A DNA stretch of 64,000 nt from a bacterium. Its GTDB lineage: Bacteria; Krumholzibacteriota; Krumholzibacteriia; G020349025. Positions 3,902-37,381 of the stretch are shown piece by piece; within the stretch, counting starts at the first letter, position 1, and every line of letters begins with the position of its first letter. Below the pieces are notes generated by a model. It was not told the DNA's origin and did no database searches. It worked only from the letters and a program-made list of their open reading frames with translations. Where the stretch lies: assembly GCA_031362565.1 (NCBI GenBank), contig JANLSU010000103.1, forward strand, positions 43,321 through 107,320, read 5' to 3'. The position numbers and the translations under genes are program-made.

Positions 3902-4064
3902 GTCAGCGACCGCCGTCGGAGGGCGTGAACCTGAAACGCGATGAACGAGGCGAGCATACTCCGCTCTCCGAACGCCGTCGAGCCTCGCTCCCTTGACGCT
4001 CGGCAGGTCTTGCCCCTATACCCTTGGTCTACAAAGACGAGCCGGCCGTAAGGCAAGGCTCGAT

Positions 4065-4139
4065 CCGTTAGGGGTGGCCGAAAGGCCTGAGACCAAACCC
4101 TTCGAACCTGACCTGGGTCATACCAGCGTAGGGAAACGG
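4065..4139 (+). ncRNA. TPP (thi-box) riboswitch aptamer
   Basis: CCGTT-AGGGGTG-GCCGAAAGGC-CTGAGA-CCAA-ACCCTTCGAACCTGA-CCTGGGTCATACCAGCGTAGGGA-AACGG matches the TPP consensus (CUGAGA, CCUGA, GCGUAGGGA). P1 is CCGTT/AACGG. Confidence 0.93.
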
Positions 4140-4162
4140 GCCAAGATCCTCAGGTACCCACA

Positions 4163-4235: not shown

Positions 4236-6647
4236 TTGTCGCGTCATGCCGTTTTGTTCATGCTCGTTGCTGCGGCGCTCGCTGGTCGAGCCCGCGCCGA
4301 CACACTCCAGGGCCGGGTTGTGGACCGCGTCACCGGCGCCCCGGTGGCGGCGGTGGAAGTGCGTGTGATCGGCGCGCCGCGCGTCGTGCTCACGAACCAG
4401 GCCGGCGAATTCACGGTTGCCGATGTCTCGGACAGTGATCTCGAAATCGAACTGCTGCGCTTCGGCTACCTGCCGGCGCACCAGCGGGTGTCCCGCGCCG
4501 GCGTCGCGAGCAGTGGCGGAACACTCGAAGTGCGCCTCGAACCGCTCGCGTTCCAGGAGGATCCCGTCATCGTCAGCGCGGCGCGCGTGCAGCGGCGCGA
4601 AAGTCCGATTCCGCACTCGGAGTTGACGCACGCCGAACTTCAGGAGCGCTATACGACGCAGGATCTGCCGGTGCTCTTGGCGGCGCTGCCGTCCTCGATC
4701 TACTACTCGGAAAGCGGCAATGGCATCGGTTACAACTACCTGACGTTGCGCGGCTTTGACCAGCGGCGCATCTCGGTGCTGGTGAATGGTGTGCCGCAGA
4801 ACGACCCCGAGGACCAAAACGTCTACTGGCTCGATTTCCCGGACCTCGCCGCCAACTTGCAGGACGTGCAGGTGCAACGCGGTGCGGGCAGTGGCTTCTA
4901 CGGACCACCGGCCATTGGCGGCGCGGTCAATCTCGCAACGGCGGCCTTCGATCCGCAGCCGGGCGTCCGCGTGCAAACCGGTGCAGGGAGTTTCGGCACC
5001 CGCAAGTCGTCGTTGCAGTTGAATTCCGGGCTGGTGAACGGCGTCTATGCTTTTTCGGGCCGTTATTCGCGGCTTCTCTCGGACGGCTACCGGCAAGACT
5101 CCTGGACCGACTTCACGTCATTCTTCTTTGGCGCGGCGCGCTACGACGCCCACCTGACGACGCGCATCCACGTCTACGGCGGGCCGCTGTCGGATGGCTT
5201 GGCCTACTACGGCGTGCCGGGCACCGCGGTGCACGATCGCGTCGCGCGCCGCCAGAATGCCCTCGCAGGCGGCGCCCAGATCGAGAATTTCTCTCAACCA
5301 CACTACGAATTGCTGAGCGAATGGCGGCCGAATGCCAAGGTGCGGGTCGTGAACACGCTCTTCTACGTGCAAGGTGACGGCTTCTTCGACTTCGACGGTT
5401 CGTTCGCCGACACGACGTACTATCGCCTGACCGGCGCGTACGGATTCCGCCCGGCGACGAATCCCGGGCGGTCGCTCATTCGGGCTTCGGTTGCCAACAA
5501 GCAGGCCGGCTGGCTGCCGCGAGTCGAATGGCAGCATGCGAACGGCGAACTGACGGTTGGTGCCGAACTGCGCCGGCACCGCTCCGATCACTGGGGCCAG
5601 ATCCGCTGGGCCGAAGCCCTGCCGGCGGGCCTCGATCCCGAGCGCAAGTACTATCGCTATCGCGGCGGCAAGGACATTCTGGGCGCCTATGCGCACGAAG
5701 TGCTGCACGCGACCGAACGCTTGCAAGTGACCGGCGATCTGCAGCTCGTCTACGACCGCTATCGGATTTTCGACGAGGATTTCGCCGCCACGACGTTCGC
5801 CCAGCCGTATGTGTTCGCGAATCCACGCTTCGGCGTCAACTACAACGCCAACCAGTCGCTGCACGGCTACGCGAGTTACGGCTACGTGCAGCGCGAGCCG
5901 CGGCTAAAGAATCTCTATGACGCCGCCGAATCGAGCGGCGGCGCCACACCGCAATACGACACCTTGTCCGGCGGCGGGGTCGATTTCGATCAGCCATTGG
6001 TGCATCCCGAAAAGTTGCACGACTTCGAATTAGGCGCCGGCTGGCGCCAAGGCACCCGCGCCACTGCGGCGGTGAATCTGTTCTGGATGGATTTTCACGA
6101 CGAGATCGTCTCCAACGGCCAGCTCGACCGTTTCGGGCAACCGGTCACCGGCAACGCCGCGCGCTCGGTGCATCGCGGCATCGAGTTGGAAGCCCGTGTC
6201 CGGCCGGTTGCGGCGTTCGAAGTCGAGGGCAATCTGTCTTGGAGCCAAAACCGGTTCCGCGACCACCGTGTCTTCGTGGACGCCGGCGGCAGTGCGATTC
6301 CGGCCGGCGTGCAACTGGGCGGCAACGAGATTGCAGGCTTCCCGAGTTTGGTTTCCAACTTGCGCGGCACGCTCCGTGGGCACGGCGCGACTGTGGCACT
6401 CGCCGCCCGTGGCGTCGGTGAGTTCTTCACGACCAACTTCGAAAACGCCAGTGAACGCGTCCCCGGGCACTTCGTATTGGATGCCGAGGCCGCGTACGAA
6501 CTGCCGTTCGCGACCCTGCGCCGCACGCGGCTCCAATTGCAGGTGCGCAACGTGCTCGACCAGTTGTACGTGCTGCACGGTGAGGGCGATCAGTTCTTCC
6601 CGGCCGCAACTCGCAATTTCTTTGCCAGCGTCGAGTTCGGCCTGTAA
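4236..6647 (+). CDS. TonB-dependent outer membrane receptor, probably for thiamine or a precursor
   Basis: Signal peptide, carboxypeptidase-regulatory-like N-domain, plug (LRGF...VLVNGVP...GGAVNL), and barrel ending VRNVLD...RNFFASVEFGL. Lies downstream of the TPP riboswitch. TTG start after GAGGGGG. Confidence 0.9.
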   Translation: MSRHAVLFMLVAAALAGRARADTLQGRVVDRVTGAPVAAVEVRVIGAPRVVLTNQAGEFTVADVSDSDLEIELLRFGYLPAHQRVSRAGVASSGGTLEVRLEPLAFQEDPVIVSAARVQRRESPIPHSELTHAELQERYTTQDLPVLLAALPSSIYYSESGNGIGYNYLTLRGFDQRRISVLVNGVPQNDPEDQNVYWLDFPDLAANLQDVQVQRGAGSGFYGPPAIGGAVNLATAAFDPQPGVRVQTGAGSFGTRKSSLQLNSGLVNGVYAFSGRYSRLLSDGYRQDSWTDFTSFFFGAARYDAHLTTRIHVYGGPLSDGLAYYGVPGTAVHDRVARRQNALAGGAQIENFSQPHYELLSEWRPNAKVRVVNTLFYVQGDGFFDFDGSFADTTYYRLTGAYGFRPATNPGRSLIRASVANKQAGWLPRVEWQHANGELTVGAELRRHRSDHWGQIRWAEALPAGLDPERKYYRYRGGKDILGAYAHEVLHATERLQVTGDLQLVYDRYRIFDEDFAATTFAQPYVFANPRFGVNYNANQSLHGYASYGYVQREPRLKNLYDAAESSGGATPQYDTLSGGGVDFDQPLVHPEKLHDFELGAGWRQGTRATAAVNLFWMDFHDEIVSNGQLDRFGQPVTGNAARSVHRGIELEARVRPVAAFEVEGNLSWSQNRFRDHRVFVDAGGSAIPAGVQLGGNEIAGFPSLVSNLRGTLRGHGATVALAARGVGEFFTTNFENASERVPGHFVLDAEAAYELPFATLRRTRLQLQVRNVLDQLYVLHGEGDQFFPAATRNFFASVEFGL

Positions 6648-6651
6648 GGCG

Positions 6652-7719
6652 TCACGCCGAGCCGGCCTCGAAGGCATTGAATGCGTCGCGGTAGAGCCCG
6701 CCCAGCCGCTCCCACGAATAGTCGTGGGCGGCGGTGTGGGTGGCTTGCCGCATGCGGTCGCGCTCCGCGGCCGGCATTTCGACAAACCGCCGCATAGCGT
6801 CGCCGACTTCGTTCGCATCGCGCAGGAAGATGCCGATGGCCTGTTTCTCGAAGTCCACGACGTTGCCCTCGGACTTGATGATGATCGGCAACTCGAAAGC
6901 CAACGCCAAGTAGATGGCCGAACAGGTCTCGATGTACTTGTACGGCGCGACGAAGCAATCGGCGGCGCGCAGATAGACCTGGATGTCGTCGTCCGGCACA
7001 TAGCCGAGCGCCAGGTGCACGTGCGGAGTGTCGCGGGCTTGGGTTTCGAGCCCGGCTTGGAATTCGGGCGAATAGGGTTTGCCGGCGATGAGCAGCCACG
7101 TGTCCGGCGCCGTGCGCTGCACGGTCGCGAAGGCGTCCAGCAGAATGTCGACGCCTTTGTACGGCCGCACGTTGCCGAAGAAGACGAAGACCGTCGCCGC
7201 TGCCGGAATCCCGAGCCGGGCCCGGGCGTCGGCGCGCGACACGCGATCCTCATAGGCGCCCGCGTAGCTGCCGATCGGAATCGTGTAGGCATGCCGCTTA
7301 CGCCCCCAGCGCCGCTCGGCTTCGGCGCGCACGTCCGGGGTGTGAAAGAAGACGATCGATGCGAGGTTCCACAACATGCGTCGCGATGCCATGTGCAGCC
7401 AATTGAGCTGCTCGGCATCGTGGACGTGCACCTCGTGCACGGTCCAAATGATCTTGTAGCCGCGCGCCACGAGCGCCAGCCACACGAGATGGGTCACGAT
7501 GTAGTGTTTGAGCCCGAACAATCGCGTCCAGGCCCGGGGCCGCAGAGTAAAGAACACTTCCGGCCAATGGAAATGCACGTAGTGGAACCGGTCGCGCCGC
7601 CGGTGGGTGAGCACCCAGCGGAGCGAAAACGGAAACTGCTCGTAATGCAGCCCGATCGTCGCCAAGGCGCGGTACAGGAGCACGGTATAGACGTTGCCCG
7701 ATTCCTGGCTGGGCAGCAT
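6652..7719 (-). CDS. Glycosyltransferase family 4 (GT-B)
   Basis: HFHWPE, WTVHE, FFGNVRPYKG and YLRAADCFVAPY motifs. Alternative TTG start at 7734 overlaps the upstream stop. Confidence 0.85.
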   Translation of the reverse strand: MLPSQESGNVYTVLLYRALATIGLHYEQFPFSLRWVLTHRRRDRFHYVHFHWPEVFFTLRPRAWTRLFGLKHYIVTHLVWLALVARGYKIIWTVHEVHVHDAEQLNWLHMASRRMLWNLASIVFFHTPDVRAEAERRWGRKRHAYTIPIGSYAGAYEDRVSRADARARLGIPAAATVFVFFGNVRPYKGVDILLDAFATVQRTAPDTWLLIAGKPYSPEFQAGLETQARDTPHVHLALGYVPDDDIQVYLRAADCFVAPYKYIETCSAIYLALAFELPIIIKSEGNVVDFEKQAIGIFLRDANEVGDAMRRFVEMPAAERDRMRQATHTAAHDYSWERLGGLYRDAFNAFEAGSA

Positions 7720-27909: not shown

Positions 27910-29622
27910 ATGACGCAGGGATTTGCGCGCGCCACCTTCACGGGTGTGCTGCCGCGCGACGTAGTGTTTCCGTATCCCGAGATGCGCCCCGAAGACGCCG
28001 AGGTCGTCGGGATGCTGGTCGATTCGATTCGCAAGTACGCTTCCGAACACATCGACGATGCGCGCATCGACTCCGAAAGCCGCATGCCGCGCGAGATTCT
28101 GACCACCCTCGCCGAACTCGGCATCATGGGCATGATCGTTCCCGAGGCCTACGGCGGTTCGGGAATGAGTGTGACGGCCTACTGCCGCGTGTTGGAAGAG
28201 ATCGCCTACTACTCGGGCGCGGTCGCCGTAACGGTTGGCGCGCACCAGTCCATCGGCATGAAGGCGATTTTGCTCTATGGCACCGATGTGCAGAAGCGCG
28301 CCGTGTTGCCCAAGCTTGCTACGGGCGAGGAATTCGCCGCCTTCGCGCTCACCGAGCCGGGTGCCGGAAGCGATGCCGGCAGTGTGCAGACGACGGCGAC
28401 GCTGACTCCGGAAGGCGACTTCTGGGTCCTGAACGGCACGAAGCAGTGGATCACCAACGCCGGGTTCGCCGACGTGTTCACGGTCTTTGCGCGCACCGAC
28501 AGCACCGGGACGCAATCGACCGGCAAAGCCATCTCGTGTTTCATCGTCCGCCGCGACACGCCGGGCGTCACGGTGGGGCCGCCGGAGAAAAAAGTTGGGC
28601 TGCGCGGTTCGGAGACCAACGAAGTGCATTTCGAGTCGGTGCGGGTACCGGCCGGCAATCTCCTGGGTGAAGTCGGCAGCGGCTTCAAGATCGCCATGTC
28701 GGTGCTCAACGAAGGGCGGCTCGGGCTCGCGTCGGGCTGCGTCGGCGCGTCGCGCCGGCTCCTGCAGCAAACGGTGGCGTACGCCAACCAGCGCCGGCAA
28801 TTCGGCCAATCCATCGGCAGTTTCGAGATCATCAAGGAAAAGCTCGCCCATATGGCGGCGCGCACCTATGTCATGGAAAGCTCCGCCTATCTGACCGCCG
28901 GCATCGCCGACCGCGGCGTCAAGGACATCAGCATCGAAGCCGCCATCTGCAAGGTGATGGGCAGCGAGACTCTGTGGTACGTGGTCAACGAAGCCATTCA
29001 GATTCACGGTGGCAACGGCTTCATGGAAGAGTTTCCGTTCGGCCGGGTCATGCGGGATGCGCGGATCAATCTCATCTTCGAGGGCACGAACGAAATCCTG
29101 CGGGTCTTCATCGCCGGCATGGGCGTCAAGGGTCCGGGCGAGGAACTGCGCCTCGTGGCGCACGCGTTGCGCCACCCGGCGCGTGAGATGGGCGTTCTGT
29201 CGCACTACTTCGGGCGGCGCATCGAGCGGCGGTTCTTGCGTGATCGCCTCCGCGACCTGCGCCCCGAACTCGACGAGTGTGCACGCGGCATCGAGCGCGT
29301 CGTGCAGCAACTGCCGCGGCGCGTCGAAACGTTACTGCGGGTCCATGGCCGCGACTTCGCGACCCGCCAATACCTCATGAAGCGGATCGCCGATGTGGCG
29401 ATCGACACCTACGGCATGGTTGCTGCGACCTCGCGCACGAATTCCTTGCTCGAGCGCGGTGAACCGGCGACCCAGGAACTGGCGATGACCCGCTTCTGGT
29501 GCCGCAAGGCGATCCGGCGGATCCGGCGCAACATGCGGGGACTGGTCGTCAATAGCGACGCTCTCACGACCGATGTCGCCGATGGGATCCTGTCGGCGCC
29601 ACTCTGGTTCGATCGCACCTGA
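27910..29622 (+). CDS. Acyl-CoA dehydrogenase (long, ACAD9/VLCAD-like)
   Basis: FALTEPGAGSD, NGTKQWITN, RRQFG, QIHGGNGF, IFEGTNEI, and a C-terminal extension. Confidence 0.93.
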   Translation: MTQGFARATFTGVLPRDVVFPYPEMRPEDAEVVGMLVDSIRKYASEHIDDARIDSESRMPREILTTLAELGIMGMIVPEAYGGSGMSVTAYCRVLEEIAYYSGAVAVTVGAHQSIGMKAILLYGTDVQKRAVLPKLATGEEFAAFALTEPGAGSDAGSVQTTATLTPEGDFWVLNGTKQWITNAGFADVFTVFARTDSTGTQSTGKAISCFIVRRDTPGVTVGPPEKKVGLRGSETNEVHFESVRVPAGNLLGEVGSGFKIAMSVLNEGRLGLASGCVGASRRLLQQTVAYANQRRQFGQSIGSFEIIKEKLAHMAARTYVMESSAYLTAGIADRGVKDISIEAAICKVMGSETLWYVVNEAIQIHGGNGFMEEFPFGRVMRDARINLIFEGTNEILRVFIAGMGVKGPGEELRLVAHALRHPAREMGVLSHYFGRRIERRFLRDRLRDLRPELDECARGIERVVQQLPRRVETLLRVHGRDFATRQYLMKRIADVAIDTYGMVAATSRTNSLLERGEPATQELAMTRFWCRKAIRRIRRNMRGLVVNSDALTTDVADGILSAPLWFDRT

Positions 29623-29630
29623 CCAAACCC

Positions 29631-30215
29631 TCACGCTTGTGGCGGGTGCGCCGGGCGTGTACCGCGTGGCCGCGGCCAGCGCGGCGACACGGTGCGATAG
29701 ATCGCTTGGATCACGGCTGCCGACGCGCCGCCGGCCAGGAACCCCACCAGCACATCCGCCGGGTAGTGCACCCCGACATAGCAGCGCGAGTAGCCGACGG
29801 CGAACGCCGTCAGGCCGAGTGGAATGCGCCAACGCCGGTAGAAGAACATGAAGTGCACGGCCGCCGCCGCCGAGTTCGCCGCATGTGAACTGGGCATCGA
29901 CCACGAGCCGGAGCACCCGGCGAGCAAATGCACGTGCTCCAGCACGTGGCATGGGCGCACGCGGTGAAACGCATCTTTCAGGAAATGGCTCGAGAGTTGA
30001 TCGGAGAGGGCGATCAACGGAATGACGAGCAACGCCGCCCAGCGTTCGCGCCGCTTCCCGAACACCAGCAGCAGCACGAAGACGATGACGAACAGCACTT
30101 TGAAGTTACCGTCGCTGGAGAGAAACGGCATCAGGCGATCGAAGAGGCCGTTCTGCCAGGCGCCGTTGACGCGCTCGAAGAGGGCGCGGTCGGCAGACGC
30201 GAGAGTTTCGAGCAC
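29631..30215 (-). CDS. PAP2 family membrane phosphatase (undecaprenyl-PP phosphatase-like)
   Basis: K....RVRP, PSSH and SRCYVGVHYPAD motifs. Start position uncertain. Confidence 0.88.
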   Translation of the reverse strand: MLETLASADRALFERVNGAWQNGLFDRLMPFLSSDGNFKVLFVIVFVLLLVFGKRRERWAALLVIPLIALSDQLSSHFLKDAFHRVRPCHVLEHVHLLAGCSGSWSMPSSHAANSAAAAVHFMFFYRRWRIPLGLTAFAVGYSRCYVGVHYPADVLVGFLAGGASAAVIQAIYRTVSPRWPRPRGTRPAHPPQA

Positions 30216-30328
30216 TGGGCGTCCGAATCGCAAAAGAACACGGCGGGTCCCCGGCGCCACCGCACCTTAAACACTGGTGTCAGCGGTGCGCAAGCCGCAG
30301 GCAGGCCGCTACGCCGCCCCGCGGGGGC

Positions 30329-30356
30329 TTGCCGCCGCCCGGATGCATGCTAGAAT
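30329..30356 (+). promoter_or_regulatory. Candidate sigma70 promoter of the queE operon
   Basis: TTGCCG-N16-TAGAAT with an extended -10 TG. Confidence 0.5.
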
Positions 30357-30474
30357 GACCGCACGGGACGCGATCCCCGCACAATTCTCGCCGAGGCCAC
30401 GGCGTGGCCGGAACAGAATCGGCGCGACAAACGGGGGCCCACGAGGCCCTTTCCCTTATCGTCCTGGAGACGGT

Positions 30475-31122
30475 ATGGACGGACGCTTGCGCGTCAACGA
30501 GATCTTCTATTCCGTGCAGGGCGAATCGACGCATGCGGGGCGTCCGTGTGTCTTCGTACGGTTGACCGGTTGTCCGTTGCGCTGCACCTACTGCGACACG
30601 GCCTACGCGTTCCATGACGGGCGCTGGATGACGCTCGACGATGTGCTGGATGCGGCCGGCGCGCACCCGTGCCGGCTGGTCGAAGTCACCGGTGGCGAAC
30701 CGCTCGCGCAACCGGCGACGCTCGCACTGCTGGCAGCGCTCGTGGAGCGCCAGTACGAAGTCCTGCTCGAAACGAGTGGCGCGTTGCCGATTGCGGCCGT
30801 GCCGGCGGGCGTGCGGCGCATCGTCGACTTCAAGACGCCGGACTCGGGTGAATCGCACCGCAATGATTGGACGAATGTCACGGCGTTGCGAACTGGGGAC
30901 GAAGTGAAATTCGTCATCGGCTCGCGCCGCGACTACGAATGGGCCCGCGAGATCATTCGCGAGCACGCACTCGACGCGCGCGTGCCGGTTCTCCTGTCGC
31001 CGGTTTGGGAGAGTGGCATCGAGCGCGATCTGGCCGCCTGGATGCTCGCCGATGGCCTGCCGGCGCGGTATCAGATCCAACTTCACAAGTGGATTTGGCC
31101 CGGCGTCTTGCGCGGGGTGTGA
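30475..31122 (+). CDS. queE: 7-carboxy-7-deazaguanine synthase (radical SAM)
   Basis: EIFYSVQGE, FVRLTGCPLRCTYCDT, TGGEP, ETSG, D.K.P.SG and C-terminal QLHKWIW. GGAG RBS. Confidence 0.92.
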   Translation: MDGRLRVNEIFYSVQGESTHAGRPCVFVRLTGCPLRCTYCDTAYAFHDGRWMTLDDVLDAAGAHPCRLVEVTGGEPLAQPATLALLAALVERQYEVLLETSGALPIAAVPAGVRRIVDFKTPDSGESHRNDWTNVTALRTGDEVKFVIGSRRDYEWAREIIREHALDARVPVLLSPVWESGIERDLAAWMLADGLPARYQIQLHKWIWPGVLRGV

Positions 31123-31125
31123 CAC

Positions 31126-32481
31126 GTGTCCGAGTTTCAGCCATTGCTTGCGGATCTTCGCACCCCGCCCCCGGGGCCGCGCTCGCGCGCCTTGGCCGGG
31201 CGGCTCGAACGAGTCGAATGCCCGGACACGACGTTTCTTTCGGATCGCTTCCCGGTGTTCTGGGAACGTGCGTCCGGGGCGAACGTTTGGGATGTGGACG
31301 GCAATCGGTACATTGATTTGACCGCTGCCTTTGGCGTGGCGCTTCTTGGACACGGCCATCCGGATGTCATTGACGCGCTGCGCACGCAGGCGACGCGTCT
31401 CGTGCATGGCATGGGCGACGTTCATCCCACTGAACTCAAAGTCGAGGTCGCGGAGCGGTTGGCGGCACTCGCACCCGGTGGGCACGGTGTGACGTTGTTC
31501 GGCAACGCCGGTTTCGAGGCGGTCGAAGCGGCGCTCAAGACGGCGGCGCTCGCGACGGGGCGTCCCGGTGTGCTGGCGTTCGAAGGTGCGTACCATGGGC
31601 TCGGGATGGGTGCGCTCGCCACGACCTGGCGCGAAGAGTTTCGCGCCCCGTTTCGCGCTCAGTTGAATCTACACGTCACGCACGTGCCGTATCCCGCCGG
31701 CCGCGGGGTCGGTAGCGCCGCCGACGCTGGGCGTGCGCTGGATGCGGTCGATAGGTTGCTCGGCTCATCGGATGGCGCCAACATCGGTGCGGTGCTCGTC
31801 GAACCCGTGCAGGGGCGCGGCGGCATTCGGATTCCACATGCGAGTTTTCTCACCGGCCTGCGTGAGGTCTGTACGCGGCGCGGCCGGCTACTCATCGTCG
31901 ATGAAATTCTCACCGGTCTCGGGCGCACCGGCCGCTGGTTCGCGTGTGAATACTCGAATGTCGTGCCGGATCTGCTGTGCGTCGGCAAGGCGCTGGCCGG
32001 CGGGCTGCCGTTGTCGGCGTGCATCGGCACTCCGGCTGTCATGGCGAGCTGGGGCCGATCGACGGGCGAAGCGCGCCACACCTCGACGTTTCTTGGCAAT
32101 CCCATGGCGTGCGCTGCTGCCATTGCGACTCTCGATGCGTTGGCGCGCCTGGATGCGCCGCGGGTGGCGATCGAGCGCGGGGCGCGGCTTGGACGCCTCT
32201 TGGCCGGGCTCGGGGCGCATCCCGGCGTCGCGGACGTGCGTGGGTTGGGATTCTTGTTTGGCGTGGAACTGGTGTCAGCGGAGGGTTCTCCCGACGGGGC
32301 GGGCTGTTTCGACGTTGTCTGCGCCGCGCTGCAACAGGGAGTCCTGGTGCTCGGCGACGGCAGTGACGGCAACGTGCTCGCCTGCATGCCGCCGCTCTGT
32401 CTCGCCGATGAACCGATGGATGCGGCCGTCGCGGCTCTTGACGCGGCGCTCGAGATGCGTGCCGCGGGGAGCGCTCCATGA
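31126..32481 (+). CDS. Class III PLP-dependent aminotransferase
   Basis: WDVDGNRYID, GAYHG, EPVQGRGG, DEILTGLGRTG, PDLLCVGKALAGG and HTSTFLGNP. Confidence 0.92.
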   Translation: MSEFQPLLADLRTPPPGPRSRALAGRLERVECPDTTFLSDRFPVFWERASGANVWDVDGNRYIDLTAAFGVALLGHGHPDVIDALRTQATRLVHGMGDVHPTELKVEVAERLAALAPGGHGVTLFGNAGFEAVEAALKTAALATGRPGVLAFEGAYHGLGMGALATTWREEFRAPFRAQLNLHVTHVPYPAGRGVGSAADAGRALDAVDRLLGSSDGANIGAVLVEPVQGRGGIRIPHASFLTGLREVCTRRGRLLIVDEILTGLGRTGRWFACEYSNVVPDLLCVGKALAGGLPLSACIGTPAVMASWGRSTGEARHTSTFLGNPMACAAAIATLDALARLDAPRVAIERGARLGRLLAGLGAHPGVADVRGLGFLFGVELVSAEGSPDGAGCFDVVCAALQQGVLVLGDGSDGNVLACMPPLCLADEPMDAAVAALDAALEMRAAGSAP

Positions 32482-33674
32482 ATGCTTCGCAAGCAGCACG
32501 CGATCCCGAAGCCGAGCGGCTCGATGCGCGCCTCCGCGACTGGATGACGACGGCACCGGCGGGGTTCACGCAGGCGGGCCGAAACCTTGGGGCACGCTAC
32601 GGGCTCGATGCGGCGGGAGCCACGCGACTCGATCGTGAGTTCGATGCACTGGCCCTCGATCTGTTCGAATATCAAACCAATCGCATCGAAGTGTATCGAA
32701 CCTTTGCCGCGGCCGGCGACCGGCGCGCGACTCCGCAGCGTGCCGTCGATGTGCCGGCACTGCCGCTCGTGGCCTTCAAACAGGCACGGGTTGCGGCTTT
32801 CCCGCCGGCGCGCGAGTGCGCGGTATTCCACACGAGCGGCACCACCGACGGCCGGCCGGGAAAGCTCCATCTCGACGACTTGTCGCTCTATGAACTGTCG
32901 CTTGCCCGCGGCTTTCGCCATCACGTGCTGCCCGACTTAGATCGCATCCGTATGTTGCTCGTAGTCGGTACGGCCCGCGAGATGCCACACTCGTCACTCG
33001 CCTACATGCTCGACCACGTGCGCCAGTTGTGGGGTACGGCCGAGAGTGGACATTTTGTTCAGGATGGCAAAGTGCAGTACGCGGCGTTCGTGGCCGCAGT
33101 GCGCTTGGCGTGCCGTGATCGCGAGCCTGTGTGTTTGATGGGCACAGCGCTCGCGTGGGTCCAAATCCTGGACGCGTGTGCAGCCGAAGGCTTTCGCGTC
33201 GTGCTTCCCGAGGGTAGCCGGGTCTTCGAAACGGGCGGCTATAAGGGACGTACTCGAGAGTTGTCCCGCGCCGACCTCGCGGCGGGCTTCGAACCGCATT
33301 TCGGCATTCCGGCAACGCATGTCGTGAGTGAATACGGTATGACCGAGATGGCGTCGCAGTACTACACGACATCGTTGCGTGCCGCACTTCTCGACACGCC
33401 GCTCGACCAGGCAGTGTGGTCGCACCCCGCGTGGCTGCGCCCGCATTGGCTCGATCCCGAGCGCGGCACTCTGTTGGAGGTTGCGGAGGCGAGCGGCATC
33501 GGGCTGCTGGCCCATCACGATCTCGCGAATCGTGGCAGCGTTGCGCATCTGTTGACCGCCGATCTGGGCAGCGCGCACGACGCGGGCTTTGACCTCGCCG
33601 GGCGATGTCCGCAAGCCGACCCGCGCGGGTGTGGACTCGTGTACGAAACGTTGCCGCTGGTGCGGGCGCCGTGA
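32478..33674 (+). CDS. LuxE-like acyl-protein synthetase (adenylating)
   Basis: VFHTSGTT P-loop, ETGGYKG, EYGMTE, DLAN, T.DLG and C-terminal GR....PRGC with the LuxE-type acyl-accepting Cys. ATGA overlap with the aminotransferase. Confidence 0.82.
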   Translation: MNASQAARDPEAERLDARLRDWMTTAPAGFTQAGRNLGARYGLDAAGATRLDREFDALALDLFEYQTNRIEVYRTFAAAGDRRATPQRAVDVPALPLVAFKQARVAAFPPARECAVFHTSGTTDGRPGKLHLDDLSLYELSLARGFRHHVLPDLDRIRMLLVVGTAREMPHSSLAYMLDHVRQLWGTAESGHFVQDGKVQYAAFVAAVRLACRDREPVCLMGTALAWVQILDACAAEGFRVVLPEGSRVFETGGYKGRTRELSRADLAAGFEPHFGIPATHVVSEYGMTEMASQYYTTSLRAALLDTPLDQAVWSHPAWLRPHWLDPERGTLLEVAEASGIGLLAHHDLANRGSVAHLLTADLGSAHDAGFDLAGRCPQADPRGCGLVYETLPLVRAP

Positions 33675-35017
33675 CTCGCCGGCGACTGGCGCATCTGCCA
33701 GGCCTCGCGGGCGAACACGATTGGCGCCCGCTCGGTGACCTCCAGTTCGATACGCCAGTGCTTGCCGCGGCCGATGTTCGCACCGTTTGGACCGCGATCG
33801 CGACCGCAAGCCGTGCATGGCGCGCGCGCCCGCTCGCCGAGCGCCTTGATCGATTGGCGGCGGTCGCGGCGTGGTTGCGGACCGAAGGCCCTGGTCCAGA
33901 AGCAGACGCACTCGTTCGTACAACAGGATTGTCATCGGCCGGGCTTGCCGCAGCATGGGACGCGACGTTCGCACCGTCCACACTCGCTGCGCTCGCGGCA
34001 GCAATCGACGCTGAAGGTTTGTGGGACCGGCTCGAGGCCCCCGGCGCCGACGTTGGACCCGTCGTGCATGTCGTGGCCGGTAACGTCATGCCCGCAACAT
34101 GGACGATGCTCGTTCGCGGCTGGCTCGTCGGGGCGCCGCAGTGGCTGCGTCCCGCGAGCCGCGAACCGCTCTTCCCGATCATTGTTGCGGCGCGATTGCA
34201 AGCGCTCGCGCCGGAATTGGCGGCGACATTCGCGGTGACCTGGTGGCTGCACGGCGACGATACTGTCGAACGGCACGTGCTCGAAGCGGCTCATGTCGTG
34301 ACAGTGCAGGGCGACGATCCGGCGATTGCTGCGGTGCGGGCGCGTGTGCAAGCGGTCGCGGAACAAGCGCGCTGCGTTGCCTATGGACCACGCTGGAGCG
34401 CGGCGCTCGTCGCCGAGGCAGCGCAAACGCCGGACAATGCCGCCCGGTTGGTGCAGGACATGGCGCTTTTCGACCAACAAGGTTGCCTCTCGCCGTCGAT
34501 CATCCTCGCCGAAGACGGTCCGCGTCTCGAAGCATGGTGCGGTGAACTTGCGGCCGCGCTCCAGGCAGCGGAGACGCGTTTGCCACGCGGCAACGTGGAT
34601 GCGACGCGAAGCGCTGGACTTCGTCTGTGGCGGGAGTCGGCGCGCCTCGGAATTGCGCTCAGGACGGTACGGCAGTTGTGGGAAAGTTCAGGTTCGTCAG
34701 CGTGGGCCGTGGCGCTCACGGCGCCGGGCGCGTCGCTCGCTTCGCCGCTCGACCGCCATGTCGTCGTGATGCCAGTGGGCAACACCGCTGGCGCCGCGCA
34801 AGAGTCGATCGATGTCGTGCGTGCGGCCCTCGGCCCGCGTTTGGTGCGGTTGCAAGGGCTTGGCGTCGACACCACGGGTTGGTCGGCAGAGACGCGTGAC
34901 GCCTGGGTCGCAGCCCTCGATGCAGCGCATGTCGCGCCGCTCGGAACCCTGCAATGGGCGCCACCCGGCTGGCGCCAGGATCATCACCCGCCGCTCGGTT
35001 CACTGCTCAAGTCGTAA
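33671..35017 (+). CDS. LuxC-like acyl-CoA/acyl-protein reductase (aldehyde dehydrogenase fold)
   Basis: HVVAGNV, QGDD.AI, YGPRWS, FDQQGCLSP (LuxC catalytic Cys motif), and a C-terminal G..Q.....W.QD. GTGA overlap with the luxE-like gene. Confidence 0.8.
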   Translation: MTRRRLAHLPGLAGEHDWRPLGDLQFDTPVLAAADVRTVWTAIATASRAWRARPLAERLDRLAAVAAWLRTEGPGPEADALVRTTGLSSAGLAAAWDATFAPSTLAALAAAIDAEGLWDRLEAPGADVGPVVHVVAGNVMPATWTMLVRGWLVGAPQWLRPASREPLFPIIVAARLQALAPELAATFAVTWWLHGDDTVERHVLEAAHVVTVQGDDPAIAAVRARVQAVAEQARCVAYGPRWSAALVAEAAQTPDNAARLVQDMALFDQQGCLSPSIILAEDGPRLEAWCGELAAALQAAETRLPRGNVDATRSAGLRLWRESARLGIALRTVRQLWESSGSSAWAVALTAPGASLASPLDRHVVVMPVGNTAGAAQESIDVVRAALGPRLVRLQGLGVDTTGWSAETRDAWVAALDAAHVAPLGTLQWAPPGWRQDHHPPLGSLLKS

Positions 35018-35026
35018 GAACTGGGC

Positions 35027-35365
35027 CTACCGCACCGACATGCGCAGCGCGTCGTCTTCCGAGGCTGCGAGGTCGAGCTTGGCGGCGACGTTGGTGCATT
35101 CGAACAGACGCAGCGCGGAGTCGCGGGCGCCGGTCAGACTGAAACGGCGGGCGCCGCTTCGGGCCCGCTGCTGGATCCGGAAGAGATAGGCGAGGGCGTC
35201 CGCGTCGACGCGTTCGACGTCCTGCAGGTTGAGCACGACATCGCGCGCGGTGGGAGCGAGTTCCTTGTCGATTTCGCCCAACAATTCGCGCGCCGCGGCG
35301 CGGGTCAGGTCGCCCCGGACGCGGACGACGAGCGCCTCATCCACGGCTTGAATTCGAATCTGCAT
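35027..35365 (-). CDS. STAS domain protein (anti-sigma factor antagonist-like)
   Basis: VVRVRGDL, VVLNLQDVERVDADAL and LRLFECT. GAGGAGG RBS. Confidence 0.82.
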   Translation of the reverse strand: MQIRIQAVDEALVVRVRGDLTRAAARELLGEIDKELAPTARDVVLNLQDVERVDADALAYLFRIQQRARSGARRFSLTGARDSALRLFECTNVAAKLDLAASEDDALRMSVR

Positions 35366-35529
35366 GTCGCCTCCTCGCTCGGTTCCTTGGAGTATCGTCC
35401 GGTCTGCGGGCCAACGAGGGGGTATCCAGGAACGACAACTACTGTAGCCCACCACGCTGGCAGCCTGCAACAAGCGGCGACCGCCGCCTCCCCGTCCGCC
35501 CAAGGGCTTGCCCGGGCCCCCCGCTCGCA

Positions 35530-35545
35530 GGCAGCCCGCGTGCCA
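35530..35545 (-). promoter_or_regulatory. Candidate sigma54 promoter upstream of the STAS gene
   Basis: TGGCACGCGGGCTGCC, GG-N10-GC, intergenic. Confidence 0.45.
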
Positions 35546-35561
35546 GGCGCCAGGCCGCGCC

Positions 35562-36053
35562 CTAGGCTTCGAGCTGGGTTTCGCAGCGCCCGCTTTGACC
35601 CGGGGATTCCTCGACCGTGGCGGCGAAGGCCACGACGCCGCCCGAGCGGAGCGCGTCGTGCAATCGCTCGACGAGGGTGGTGCAAAAATACTGGGCGAGA
35701 CACTCGCAGCTGACATTGGGCACCGGGAGGATGGTGCAGTCTTCGGCGGGGAGTACGTAGCGCTTGCCGCGGCACCGCACTTCGATCTCGCCGTCCCGCG
35801 AAGTGATTTGGAGATCGGCGGCCGCACCGGGCAAGAGCAGAGTCTCATCGAGTTCGGCGCACAGGCGCCGCGCTTCGACCTTCACGGTGCCGAAGTCGAC
35901 GAGCAGGCCATGCTGCAGTGTCTTAGCGCGCAGCGTGAGTTGCACGCGGTAATTGTGGCCATGCAGGCGTTCCATGGCCGACTCGAACAATGTGAAGTGG
36001 GCGCTGGAGAACTTCATGTCCTCCTTGCCCAGCGAGATCTCGTGGATTTGCAT
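35562..36053 (-). CDS. 6-pyruvoyl-tetrahydropterin synthase (PTPS/QueD) family protein with a Glu-type (PTPS-III-like) active site
   Basis: FSSAHF, MERLHGHNY, G.LVDF, LD, S.E.LA and VEESP. TGATG overlap with the upstream gene. Confidence 0.85.
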   Translation of the reverse strand: MQIHEISLGKEDMKFSSAHFTLFESAMERLHGHNYRVQLTLRAKTLQHGLLVDFGTVKVEARRLCAELDETLLLPGAAADLQITSRDGEIEVRCRGKRYVLPAEDCTILPVPNVSCECLAQYFCTTLVERLHDALRSGGVVAFAATVEESPGQSGRCETQLEA

Positions 36054-37381
36054 CACCGGAACGTGAGGCCAAGGCCGATGTAGCTGGCCTTCGTCACGCC
36101 CGAGCGGCCGACGCCGTTTGCATCGACGACGCGAAAGTGGCTGAGGTTGCTGACGCGGACGAGCGCAGTTCCCATCACATGATCACTGAGCGGCAGGCGC
36201 AGGCGCCCGGCGTAGCTCGGCCCGACCTCGGTCTCGCCGACGACGCGCAGCCCGGTGAAACCGATCATCCCGGCCAGATTCACGAACCCGAAATCGATGT
36301 CGAGTCCGCCCGAAATGGAACCGCCGTTCACGACCGGCGCCCGGCTCGAACTGAATGCCACGAAGGCGCTCTCGTTCACAAGCAAGAATTTGAAGAAGCG
36401 CTGGTTGAACGCGAAATAGACGCCGCCTTCCGTGACCGGGTCACCGGCCGGCGTGCGGGCGCCGAGGAACGCGATCACGCCCACCTCGGGCTGCAGGTCG
36501 AGCTTCGAGGGCGCGTATTGCAGGTTGTAGCCCTGGTAGTTGGGCCCGAGCATGTTGACGCCCTGTCGCAACGCCGCTGCCGGTGGCGCCGGATCGAGTG
36601 GCGCCAAGCGATCTACCGGCACCGGATCGAGCGAGACGTACTGGCTCGGGTCGGAGCTCTTGCGCGGCGGGTATTGGTCGCGCGTCGAATCCGGCTCGCC
36701 GCGGAAGAGTCGCATGTCGTTCACGGCCGGGAGCGAGTCCGGGCCGGTGGCAATCCAAACGTCGCCACCGCGCGCTGCGAGTTGCACGACCTCTTCGGCG
36801 AGCCGCTTCCGATAGGCGAGCACCACGGCGGTGGTCATATCGAGCGCCATGGCGGAATCGGCATTCTCGATCGGCGCGATGGTGGCCGTGAAACCTTGCT
36901 TGCGGATGTTCGGAAACAGCGCGACGCTTTCGTCCGGTACCTGCGGATCGAGCTTGCCGTAGCGCGGCAGCCCGCCGTCGTAGTCCTTGCCGCGGTTGAG
37001 GTAGATCACCATCGGCCAGTACGTCGCCGCGAACCCCGCCGGCGACGAGCCATCGGCGATCGAATAGATGCGCGATGCGATGTCACGCAGGTCGTGCCCG
37101 TTCATGAACACTTGCACCATGTTGGCGGTGTTCGGCACCGGCTCGAACGGCACGCTGGCCATCAGTTCCTTGTAGAGACGGACACGCTCGTTGATGTGAT
37201 CGACGCGCGCCTTCTCGTCCAGGTACTCGATCCGCTTGCGCTCGGCTGCCTCGCGCTGCTGCTGGATTTCGGCGGGATTCGGCTGTTGAGCCGCAAGGCG
37301 CGAAACGGATCCGGCCGCCAGCAAGAGCACGCCGGCGAGGCCCAGGGTTCGGATCAAAATGGATCGGCTGCGCCCTCGCAT
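36053..37381 (-). CDS. Hypothetical secreted / outer membrane protein
   Basis: GGAGG RBS, signal peptide, and C-terminal amphipathic beta strands ending YIGLGLTFR. Confidence 0.7.
   Translation of the reverse strand: MRGRSRSILIRTLGLAGVLLLAAGSVSRLAAQQPNPAEIQQQREAAERKRIEYLDEKARVDHINERVRLYKELMASVPFEPVPNTANMVQVFMNGHDLRDIASRIYSIADGSSPAGFAATYWPMVIYLNRGKDYDGGLPRYGKLDPQVPDESVALFPNIRKQGFTATIAPIENADSAMALDMTTAVVLAYRKRLAEEVVQLAARGGDVWIATGPDSLPAVNDMRLFRGEPDSTRDQYPPRKSSDPSQYVSLDPVPVDRLAPLDPAPPAAALRQGVNMLGPNYQGYNLQYAPSKLDLQPEVGVIAFLGARTPAGDPVTEGGVYFAFNQRFFKFLLVNESAFVAFSSSRAPVVNGGSISGGLDIDFGFVNLAGMIGFTGLRVVGETEVGPSYAGRLRLPLSDHVMGTALVRVSNLSHFRVVDANGVGRSGVTKASYIGLGLTFR

Follow-up and report, generated by a model that had tools for sequence, protein, structure and literature searches.

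How could a bacterium reach preQ1 (7-aminomethyl-7-deazaguanine), and from there queuosine in its tRNA, if it makes 7-carboxy-7-deazaguanine (CDG) and has neither QueC nor QueF? To our knowledge, the synthesis of queuosine is treated as solved, with no way known from CDG to preQ1 other than through QueC and QueF. The question is raised by a 64,000-nucleotide stretch of DNA (hereafter the window) from contig JANLSU010000103.1 of a member of the Krumholzibacteriota (assembly GCA_031362565.1), in which four plus-strand open reading frames (ORFs) fill positions 30475-35017 and encode QueE, a class III aminotransferase, a LuxE-like protein and a LuxC-like protein, the last three being referred to below as the trio. 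In our judgement, this operon probably makes preQ1 from GTP-derived CDG and bypasses the nitrile intermediate preQ0. We also lean, if only slightly, towards the view that a widespread nitrile-free route to preQ1 replaces QueC and QueF in whole lineages, namely the window's own family (f1), most of the Binatia tested and scattered others.

The four co-directional genes were all found on the plus strand at the coordinates given by an earlier reading of this DNA (the sequence-only reading), joined by the 3-nt gap and the ATGA and GTGA overlaps that it had described. The first gene, queE (30475-31122, +), starts with ATG and encodes a radical S-adenosylmethionine (SAM) enzyme, CDG synthase, of 215 amino acids (aa). 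The class III (omega) aminotransferase gene (31126-32481, +; 451 aa) starts with GTG 3 nt past the queE stop. It is followed by the gene for a LuxE-like adenylate-forming acyl-protein synthetase (32478-33674, +; 398 aa), whose ATG start lies in an ATGA overlap with the aminotransferase stop, and by that for a LuxC-like thioester reductase (33671-35017, +; 448 aa), whose GTG start lies in a GTGA overlap with the LuxE-like stop; an alternative in-frame ATG start of the latter is present at 33605. The G+C content of the window is about 66-70%. Among five QueE models, the window QueE was best matched by TIGR04349 (291.3 bits, cut-off 300; model positions 1-205 of 210). It also matched Radical_SAM PF04055 with 48.7 bits (cut-off 29.5), and its translation contains the radical SAM cysteine cluster CPLRCTYC.

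The aminotransferase covers positions 7-403 of the 403 of PF00202 (330.3 bits) and scores under every NCBIfam equivalog cut-off. Its best solved matches were GabT, PuuE and putrescine aminotransferases (PDB 4FFC, 7JH3 and 4UOX; E 3e-73 to 2e-63), enzymes that interconvert terminal amines (CH2NH2) and aldehydes (CHO). The class III fold is common to GabT, PuuE, PatA and the window protein, whereas the gene of the latter is translationally coupled to a LuxE-like gene. This coupling is accompanied by sequence similarity: the window aminotransferase is 45-66% identical to those of loci with the same aminotransferase-LuxE order, compared with 35-38% to paralogues in its own genome.

The LuxE-like protein alone had no Pfam match at E 0.001, PF04443 included, and the NCBIfam LuxE equivalog scored it at 27.6 bits (cut-off 550). 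Its relatives (35-43% identity) exceeded the PF04443 cut-off of 24.9 with 35-104 bits, and a profile of 11 LuxE-like sequences matched the LuxE of PDB 7XC6 (chain E) along almost the whole of its length (E 1.7e-24). In this alignment the C-terminal RGC (C385) corresponds to the KGC of 7XC6 LuxE, and we take its cysteine to be the acylated one. TSGTT, EYGMTE and the C-terminal RGC were invariant in 11/11 LuxE-like sequences. The LuxC-like protein matched PF05893 with 132.9 bits (cut-off 21) and the NCBIfam LuxC equivalog with only 49 bits (cut-off 750); therefore, it is not an orthologue of the LuxC of bioluminescence. It aligned with the LuxC of 7XC6 (chain A; E 1.1e-9) such that FDQQGCLS faces YDQQACFS, the cysteine of DQQGC presumably being the catalytic one. 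Both motifs claimed by the sequence-only reading, the C-terminal RGC of the LuxE-like protein (...DPRGCGLVYE...) and the DQQGCLS of the LuxC-like protein (as FDQQGCLS), were thus recovered, and the catalytic apparatus of the pair is, as judged from these alignments, intact. The LuxC-LuxE fatty acid reductase of Photobacterium phosphoreum (7XC6) resembles the trio in combining a synthetase that carries a C-terminal cysteine with a reductase that carries an active-site cysteine, and both parts align. It differs in that the window pair is very distant from it and is coupled to an aminotransferase and queE; moreover, myristic acid is the substrate of the luminous pair, whereas a heteroaromatic acid is the one proposed here.

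Several steps can be proposed for the operon. In LuxE-LuxC systems, the acid is adenylated, held as a thioester on LuxE, transferred to LuxC and reduced with NADPH to the aldehyde. Given this mechanism and the chemistry of class III transaminases, the trio should therefore turn R-COOH into R-CH2NH2. We infer the identity of R-COOH as CDG only from gene context and phyletic pattern; the acid on which the LuxE/LuxC-like pair acts, the source of the amino group and all chemical steps of the route are likewise putative. QueE would produce the carboxylic acid CDG, whose 7-carboxylate the LuxE-like enzyme would adenylate with ATP before placing the acyl group on its own C-terminal RGC cysteine. The acyl group would then pass to the DQQGC cysteine of the LuxC-like reductase, where reduction of the thioester with NAD(P)H would release 7-formyl-7-deazaguanine. 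The class III aminotransferase would convert this aldehyde into the aminomethyl compound, that is preQ1, and the Tgt, QueA and QueG of the genome would complete queuosine in tRNA. The sequence-only reading had left room for a new deazapurine amine as the product. By definition, preQ1 is what the transamination of 7-formyl-7-deazaguanine yields, and this alternative therefore coincides with preQ1.

If this is the function of the trio, what does the rest of the genome contain? The assembly (100% complete, 1.85% contamination, 133 contigs) was examined by a six-frame hidden Markov model (HMM) family search, with tblastn as an independent check. The six-frame search located tgt and queA next to each other on contig C91, with only one TGT-family gene in the genome. 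Also present were queG (392 bits), FolE (GTP cyclohydrolase I; 255 bits), three QueD/PTPS homologues and a single QueE, namely that of the window. No QueC (PF06508) could be identified among the 15 candidates scored in the six-frame search, and the sole match to QueF (PF14489) was the FolE gene itself (23.4 bits, under the cut-off). Eight proteins from genomes of the same class (four QueC, four QueF), used as tblastn queries, gave no hit in this genome at E 1e-3, and the positive controls were all recovered. QueH was not found in the genome either. The gene set is intact before CDG and after preQ1; therefore, the hole comprises exactly the two intervening steps. The genome search proposed with the sequence-only reading thus found tgt, queA, queG, folE and queD homologues, and neither queC nor queF. 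A supposed second deazaguanine cluster on contig C97 was rejected, as the weak radical SAM match near a QueD homologue was a generic radical SAM gene beside rpsA.

Comparison with relatives from the same class (41 genomes in families f1 to f8) revealed that the trio takes the place of queC. The LuxE-like gene occurred in 5/6 other f1 genomes versus 0/34 genomes of the seven other families; the f1 genome in which it was not detected (G002) is 71% complete. Full-length QueC (E 1e-39 or better) was present in all 27 genomes of f2, f3, f4, f6, f7 and f8, in 0/7 of f5 and, within f1, in G004 only. Strong QueF matches were observed in 19 genomes of f2, f4, f6 and f8, plus G004. TGT was found in 39/41 genomes, including five (G000, G001, G003, G005 and G006) that have neither QueC nor QueF. 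With the window-type query, QueE orthologues were recovered from 7/7 f2, 6/6 f6 and 5/6 f1 genomes and from none of f5. In all 13 genomes of f2 and f6, these orthologues (47-58% identity to the window QueE) directly precede queC, which lies 11-224 nt downstream on the same strand; in the window and in G001, G003, G004 and G005, the order is queE-aminotransferase-luxE-luxC, so that the trio occupies the queC slot of the sister families. The complete order in G001, G003 and G005 was acyl-CoA dehydrogenase, queE, aminotransferase, luxE-like, luxC-like and STAS; the operon of G004 is on a short contig, and the contig of G006 begins within the aminotransferase. This linkage is conserved in four other f1 genomes, from three further genera, and five f1 genomes without queC retain queE (66-72% identity). 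As expected for salvagers, QueC, QueF, QueE and LuxE were each absent from all seven f5 genomes. On the basis of the f1 and f5 patterns, a genome of f1 therefore keeps QueE in the absence of QueC only if it also has the trio. A further irregular set of queuosine genes was observed in f3 and f7 (G008, G013, G018, G023, G028, G033 and G038), which have QueC and TGT, only FolE-like weak QueF matches and no QueE detectable with the window-type query.

The linkage to queE was also found in metagenome contigs. A profile scan of metagenome contigs, many of them only 1.4-4 kb long, left 80 loci, half of which (40/80) carry a class III aminotransferase on the same stretch. The aminotransferase-LuxE order with more than 1 kb of upstream sequence occurred in 11 loci; in three of them (L160, L131 and L162), the trio is closely preceded by a QueE gene of the window's subtype (46-51% identity). 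L160 shows the plain QueE-aminotransferase-LuxE-LuxC order; in L131, the operon is intact except for an IS200-like transposase gene (4780-5361) that separates queE from the aminotransferase gene; and in L162, LuxE and LuxC are fused into one protein of 848 aa. Other trio loci lie amid housekeeping genes (dnaG-rpoD, RNase HII, priA and thyX). A midpoint-rooted FastTree tree was built from 128 LuxE-like sequences from 132 loci plus the window, with four loci omitted because their best match fell short of 310 residues or contained a stop. The QueE-linked loci fell into three separate LuxE clades: f1, L131 together with L160, and L162. The conservation of the linkage, which the sequence-only reading had made a test of its proposal, thus extends from the window's own genome to four f1 genomes and three unrelated metagenome contigs.

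The LuxE-like family as a whole is large. Of 1.84 billion cluster representatives, its profile picked out 4784 at E 0.001 and, at the stricter limit of E 1e-30, 1751 (clusters at 50% identity), not all of which need serve a preQ1 pathway. Near clusters are labelled in the ESM Atlas only as 'LuxE/PaaK family acyltransferase' or 'long-chain fatty acid-CoA ligase family'. Nineteen unusually long members were scanned. Seven were LuxE-LuxC fusions, which underline that the two proteins form a single working unit, as in the LuxC-LuxE relay; others had unassigned extensions, and no fusion to a Que protein was found among the 19.

Does the same gene combination occur in unrelated genomes? A pattern scan with one genome per species identified 47 loci with a LuxE-like gene (35-42% identity), mostly from Binatia, with single records from Gemmatimonadales, Methylomirabilota and Eisenbacteria. 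In most of them, a LuxC gene adjoins the LuxE-like gene, and a class III aminotransferase gene lies at a distance of 0-5 kb. Queuosine genes were searched in 35 of the 47 host genomes. TGT was present in 35/35, QueF in one (G048) and QueC in five at E 1e-10, with 224 bits in G048 and weak matches of 94-115 bits in G042, G044, G046 and G063. A QueE-like match was obtained with the window-type query in 27/35; the distant matches sampled were genuine QueE of the Cx14CxxC subtype (348-357 bits, cut-off 240). Five genomes missed by this query (G043, G055, G061, G065 and G072) carry QueE according to TIGR04508 (346-355 bits, cut-off 240), which brings true QueE to at least 32/35, G042, G046 and G074 being outside the re-test. 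Thus, a second, unrelated lineage has the identical combination: TGT and QueE are kept, QueC and QueF are gone and the trio is present. As a separate observation, in one locus from an uncultured genome (L011), the gene that follows aminotransferase-LuxE-LuxC (6206-7282) is an AmmeMemoRadiSam-system radical SAM gene and not QueE.

How well does CDG fare against other substrates and products? The principal rival is that the trio turns a different acid, for example a fatty acid, into a primary amine and is merely co-transcribed with queE, the queuosine precursors being salvaged or otherwise made. We consider this unlikely, and the observations that weigh against CDG are largely those that speak for it. 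Canonical LuxC and LuxE act on fatty acids, which are the substrates named in the 7XC6 entry, and the binding of CDG by the window proteins is putative. The context of the operon has a lipid flavour, with an acyl-CoA dehydrogenase upstream in all f1 genomes, and in one Binatia locus the aminotransferase gene is immediately followed by that for an SCP2 lipid-carrier domain protein, with alpha/beta hydrolases close by. In addition, three of the long LuxE-like family members (P0015, P0016 and P0059) have a zinc-type alcohol dehydrogenase fused before the LuxE-like domain, which suggests an acid-to-alcohol branch and the participation of part of the family in other acid-reducing pathways; both the acyl-CoA dehydrogenase neighbour and these fusions fit non-queuosine uses. 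No Que gene was found within 8 kb in any of the 47 distant loci when three QueE types, three QueD, QueC, QueF, FolE, TGT and QueA were tested. Some genomes possess both systems: G048 holds the full trio (L026) as well as a queE-queC operon and QueF, and G107 and G137 combine a LuxE-like gene with QueC and QueF. Within f1, the operon of G004 is accompanied by QueC (TIGR00364, 161 bits), QueF and a partial QueE-like gene, which lie together on another contig. This cluster (L076, contig C1 3548-9190) stands beside an IS21-type helper ATPase, with unassigned ORFs between its genes, and its G+C content (62.8%) falls 8.5 points short of the 71.3% of the operon contig. It is possibly a mobile deazaguanine island or a binning error, the G004 metagenome-assembled genome being 64% complete and divided into 710 contigs.

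A sample of 151 genomes (completeness at least 85%), drawn evenly from the phylum of G044, gave a similarly mixed picture. The LuxE profile was matched in 12 genomes (E 1e-20), QueC in 100 and the window-type QueE query in 84. QueC was missing in 7/12 LuxE carriers versus 44/139 non-carriers, which is a modest depletion (Fisher p 0.11, or 0.02 if the weak G044 match is counted as absent); as related genomes are not independent, little weight attaches to either value. Strong QueC was present in the LuxE carriers G107, G137, G171 and G196 (the LuxE match of G196 being weak and containing a stop), and the QueC-like match of G044 was weak. QueF was found in the carriers G107, G137, G124 and G160 and was not found in G171, G196, G044, G110, G147 and G209. 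Neither query detected QueE in the carriers G124, G160 and G222, and G110 and G147 gave only weak partial matches. G124 and G160, with a LuxE-like gene and QueF and with neither QueC nor QueE found, look like cases of preQ0 salvage, in which the LuxE-like gene may do something else. On the other side of this comparison, only 1/151 genomes had QueE (window-type query) without QueC, and this genome, G209, carries the LuxE-like gene. The anti-correlation of the trio with queC and queF, which the sequence-only reading had put forward for testing, holds as a strong depletion in the 35 distant carrier genomes, with G048 (full trio) and G107 and G137 (LuxE-like gene) as exceptions. It should also be noted that Rfam detected no preQ1 riboswitch when applied to the full window (gathering score), to positions 29500-30600 (E 10), to the region upstream of queE in G005 or to 9 related loci, and that salvage of queuosine precursors, for example via the transporters YhhQ and QueT, may meet the need for them.

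However, a trio acting on another acid leaves several facts unexplained. It gives no reason why queE should be retained at 66-72% identity in five queC-less f1 genomes, when the f5 salvagers have lost it, why the trio should stand exactly at the queC slot of the sister families, or why linkage to queE should have arisen in three LuxE clades; the housekeeping neighbours of several other trio loci also argue against this rival. Formation of a deazapurine for a secondary metabolite or DNA modification, instead of tRNA queuosine, appears very unlikely to us. The product could in principle be used outside tRNA, and CDG and preQ0 are described as feeding deazapurine antibiotics and DNA modifications in two reports (PMC5699537, PMC10516641). 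Yet the only TGT-family gene of the genome adjoins queA, with no second transglycosylase found in the genome, and the ORFs scanned in the vicinity of the operon include neither nucleoside-forming nor tailoring genes. In addition, whole lineages carry the trio among housekeeping genes, and CDG as the substrate gives preQ1 anyway. Still less credible, and in our view very nearly negligible, is reduction of the QueD product 6-carboxy-tetrahydropterin (CPH4) or another pterin acid to an aminomethyl pterin. CPH4 is likewise a carboxylic acid of the queuosine pathway, and a gene for a QueD/PTPS-like protein of 164 aa (35562-36056, -), convergent with the operon, lies 545 bases downstream of it. The sequence-only reading was right that the window has no queC or queF and had overlooked this gene, which matches PF01242 (57.6 bits, cut-off 22.4), scores 51.7 bits with TIGR03367 QueD (cut-off 89.25) and is possibly a CPH4 synthase feeding QueE. 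Nevertheless, the gene within the operon is queE, a consumer of CPH4; queD is outside it and keeps its position only in G003 (63% identity); and the missing steps from CDG to preQ1 would stay unexplained. The best-supported reading, which we hold to be likelier true than false, is thus that the trio converts CDG into preQ1; it rests on the exact pathway hole, the in-place replacement of queC, the second lineage and the recurrent linkage. The genome, linkage and depletion tests mostly favour this step as the sequence-only reading had proposed it, and what counts against it is the existence of genomes with both systems or with a LuxE-like gene and no QueE, together with the lipid-flavoured neighbours of some loci.

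The flanks of the operon were also analyzed. A sigma-70-like promoter site (30329-30356, +), identified by pattern match only, consists of TTGCCG, a 16-nt spacer and TAGAAT, with TG before the second hexamer; a consensus scan of 29500-36300 gave 2 sites, with 0.5 expected from shuffles. According to sequence and motif search, the putative 5' leader (30357-30474, +) is about 118 nt long. It contains the hairpin ACGGGACGCGATCCCCG, followed by ATTCTCGCCG, directly after the -10-like box (window 30363-30379; L107 2248-2264, - strand), and this hairpin is common to the window and G002 only. Folding of the leader was no better than that of shuffles (z -1.1), and it matched no Rfam family. Both leaders end in a GC hairpin and then a T-rich run, an attenuator-like arrangement. 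A second, nearly invariant hairpin, GCAGGGTTCGTCTCCCC(T/C)GC, is located 150-350 nt upstream of queE in G001, G003, G005 and G002, where its flanks diverge (L071 12564-12580, - strand; L072 6917-6933; L074 7531-7547; L107 2475-2491, - strand). It is not present in the window and looks like a tRNA T-arm. Both hairpins were considered as preQ1-linked RNA elements and set aside, as neither could be tied to preQ1. The sole Rfam family in the window is a thiamine pyrophosphate (TPP) riboswitch at 4060-4151 (+; 72.5 bits, gathering score 54.3).

Downstream, 9 bases separate the end of the operon from a convergent gene for a STAS-domain protein (35027-35390, -; start approximate), the STAS domain comprising residues 164-267 of ORF 35027-35848; this gene has the same place after luxC in G001, G003 and G006. 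Upstream, a PAP2/undecaprenyl-diphosphatase-like gene (29631-30260, -), divergent from the operon, lies between the acyl-CoA dehydrogenase gene and queE, and relatives have a similar-sized gene in its place.

What, then, would distinguish such a route from known chemistry? It would share with QueC and QueF the proposed start (CDG), the end (preQ1) and the operon slot after queE, and the trio has no sequence relation to them. The standard route proceeds through an amide and a nitrile and uses ATP, ammonia and two NADPH, whereas the proposed one would proceed through an aldehyde and use ATP, one NAD(P)H and an amino donor. Its overall logic is that of the biocatalysis cascades in which a carboxylic acid reductase (CAR) and an omega-transaminase lead from COOH through CHO to CH2NH2 with ATP, NADPH and pyridoxal phosphate (PLP). 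However, CAR is a single multidomain protein with a phosphopantetheine arm, whereas the proposed carrier in the trio is a cysteine on a separate LuxE-like protein. In the full-text literature searched, with subscription journals outside coverage, we found no report of a route independent of QueC and QueF, of a part played by LuxC/LuxE homologues in making queuosine, or of a CAR/transaminase-type cascade operon-coupled to a tRNA-modification gene. The sole mention found of 7-formyl-7-deazaguanine, in one paper, is as a hydrolysis by-product that arises with QueF variants (PMC13740343), and the 'aminotransferase' mentioned in another refers to enzymes making G+ from preQ0 (PMC6884629). If the proposed route is true, 7-formyl-7-deazaguanine would become a true metabolite, and the LuxC/LuxE relay would act on a heteroaromatic acid within a natural cascade from acid to amine, which would be of interest for biocatalysis. 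Genome-based assignments of organisms as 'queuosine auxotroph' or 'salvager' would then be wrong for whole lineages, for example the Binatia and the window's own family.

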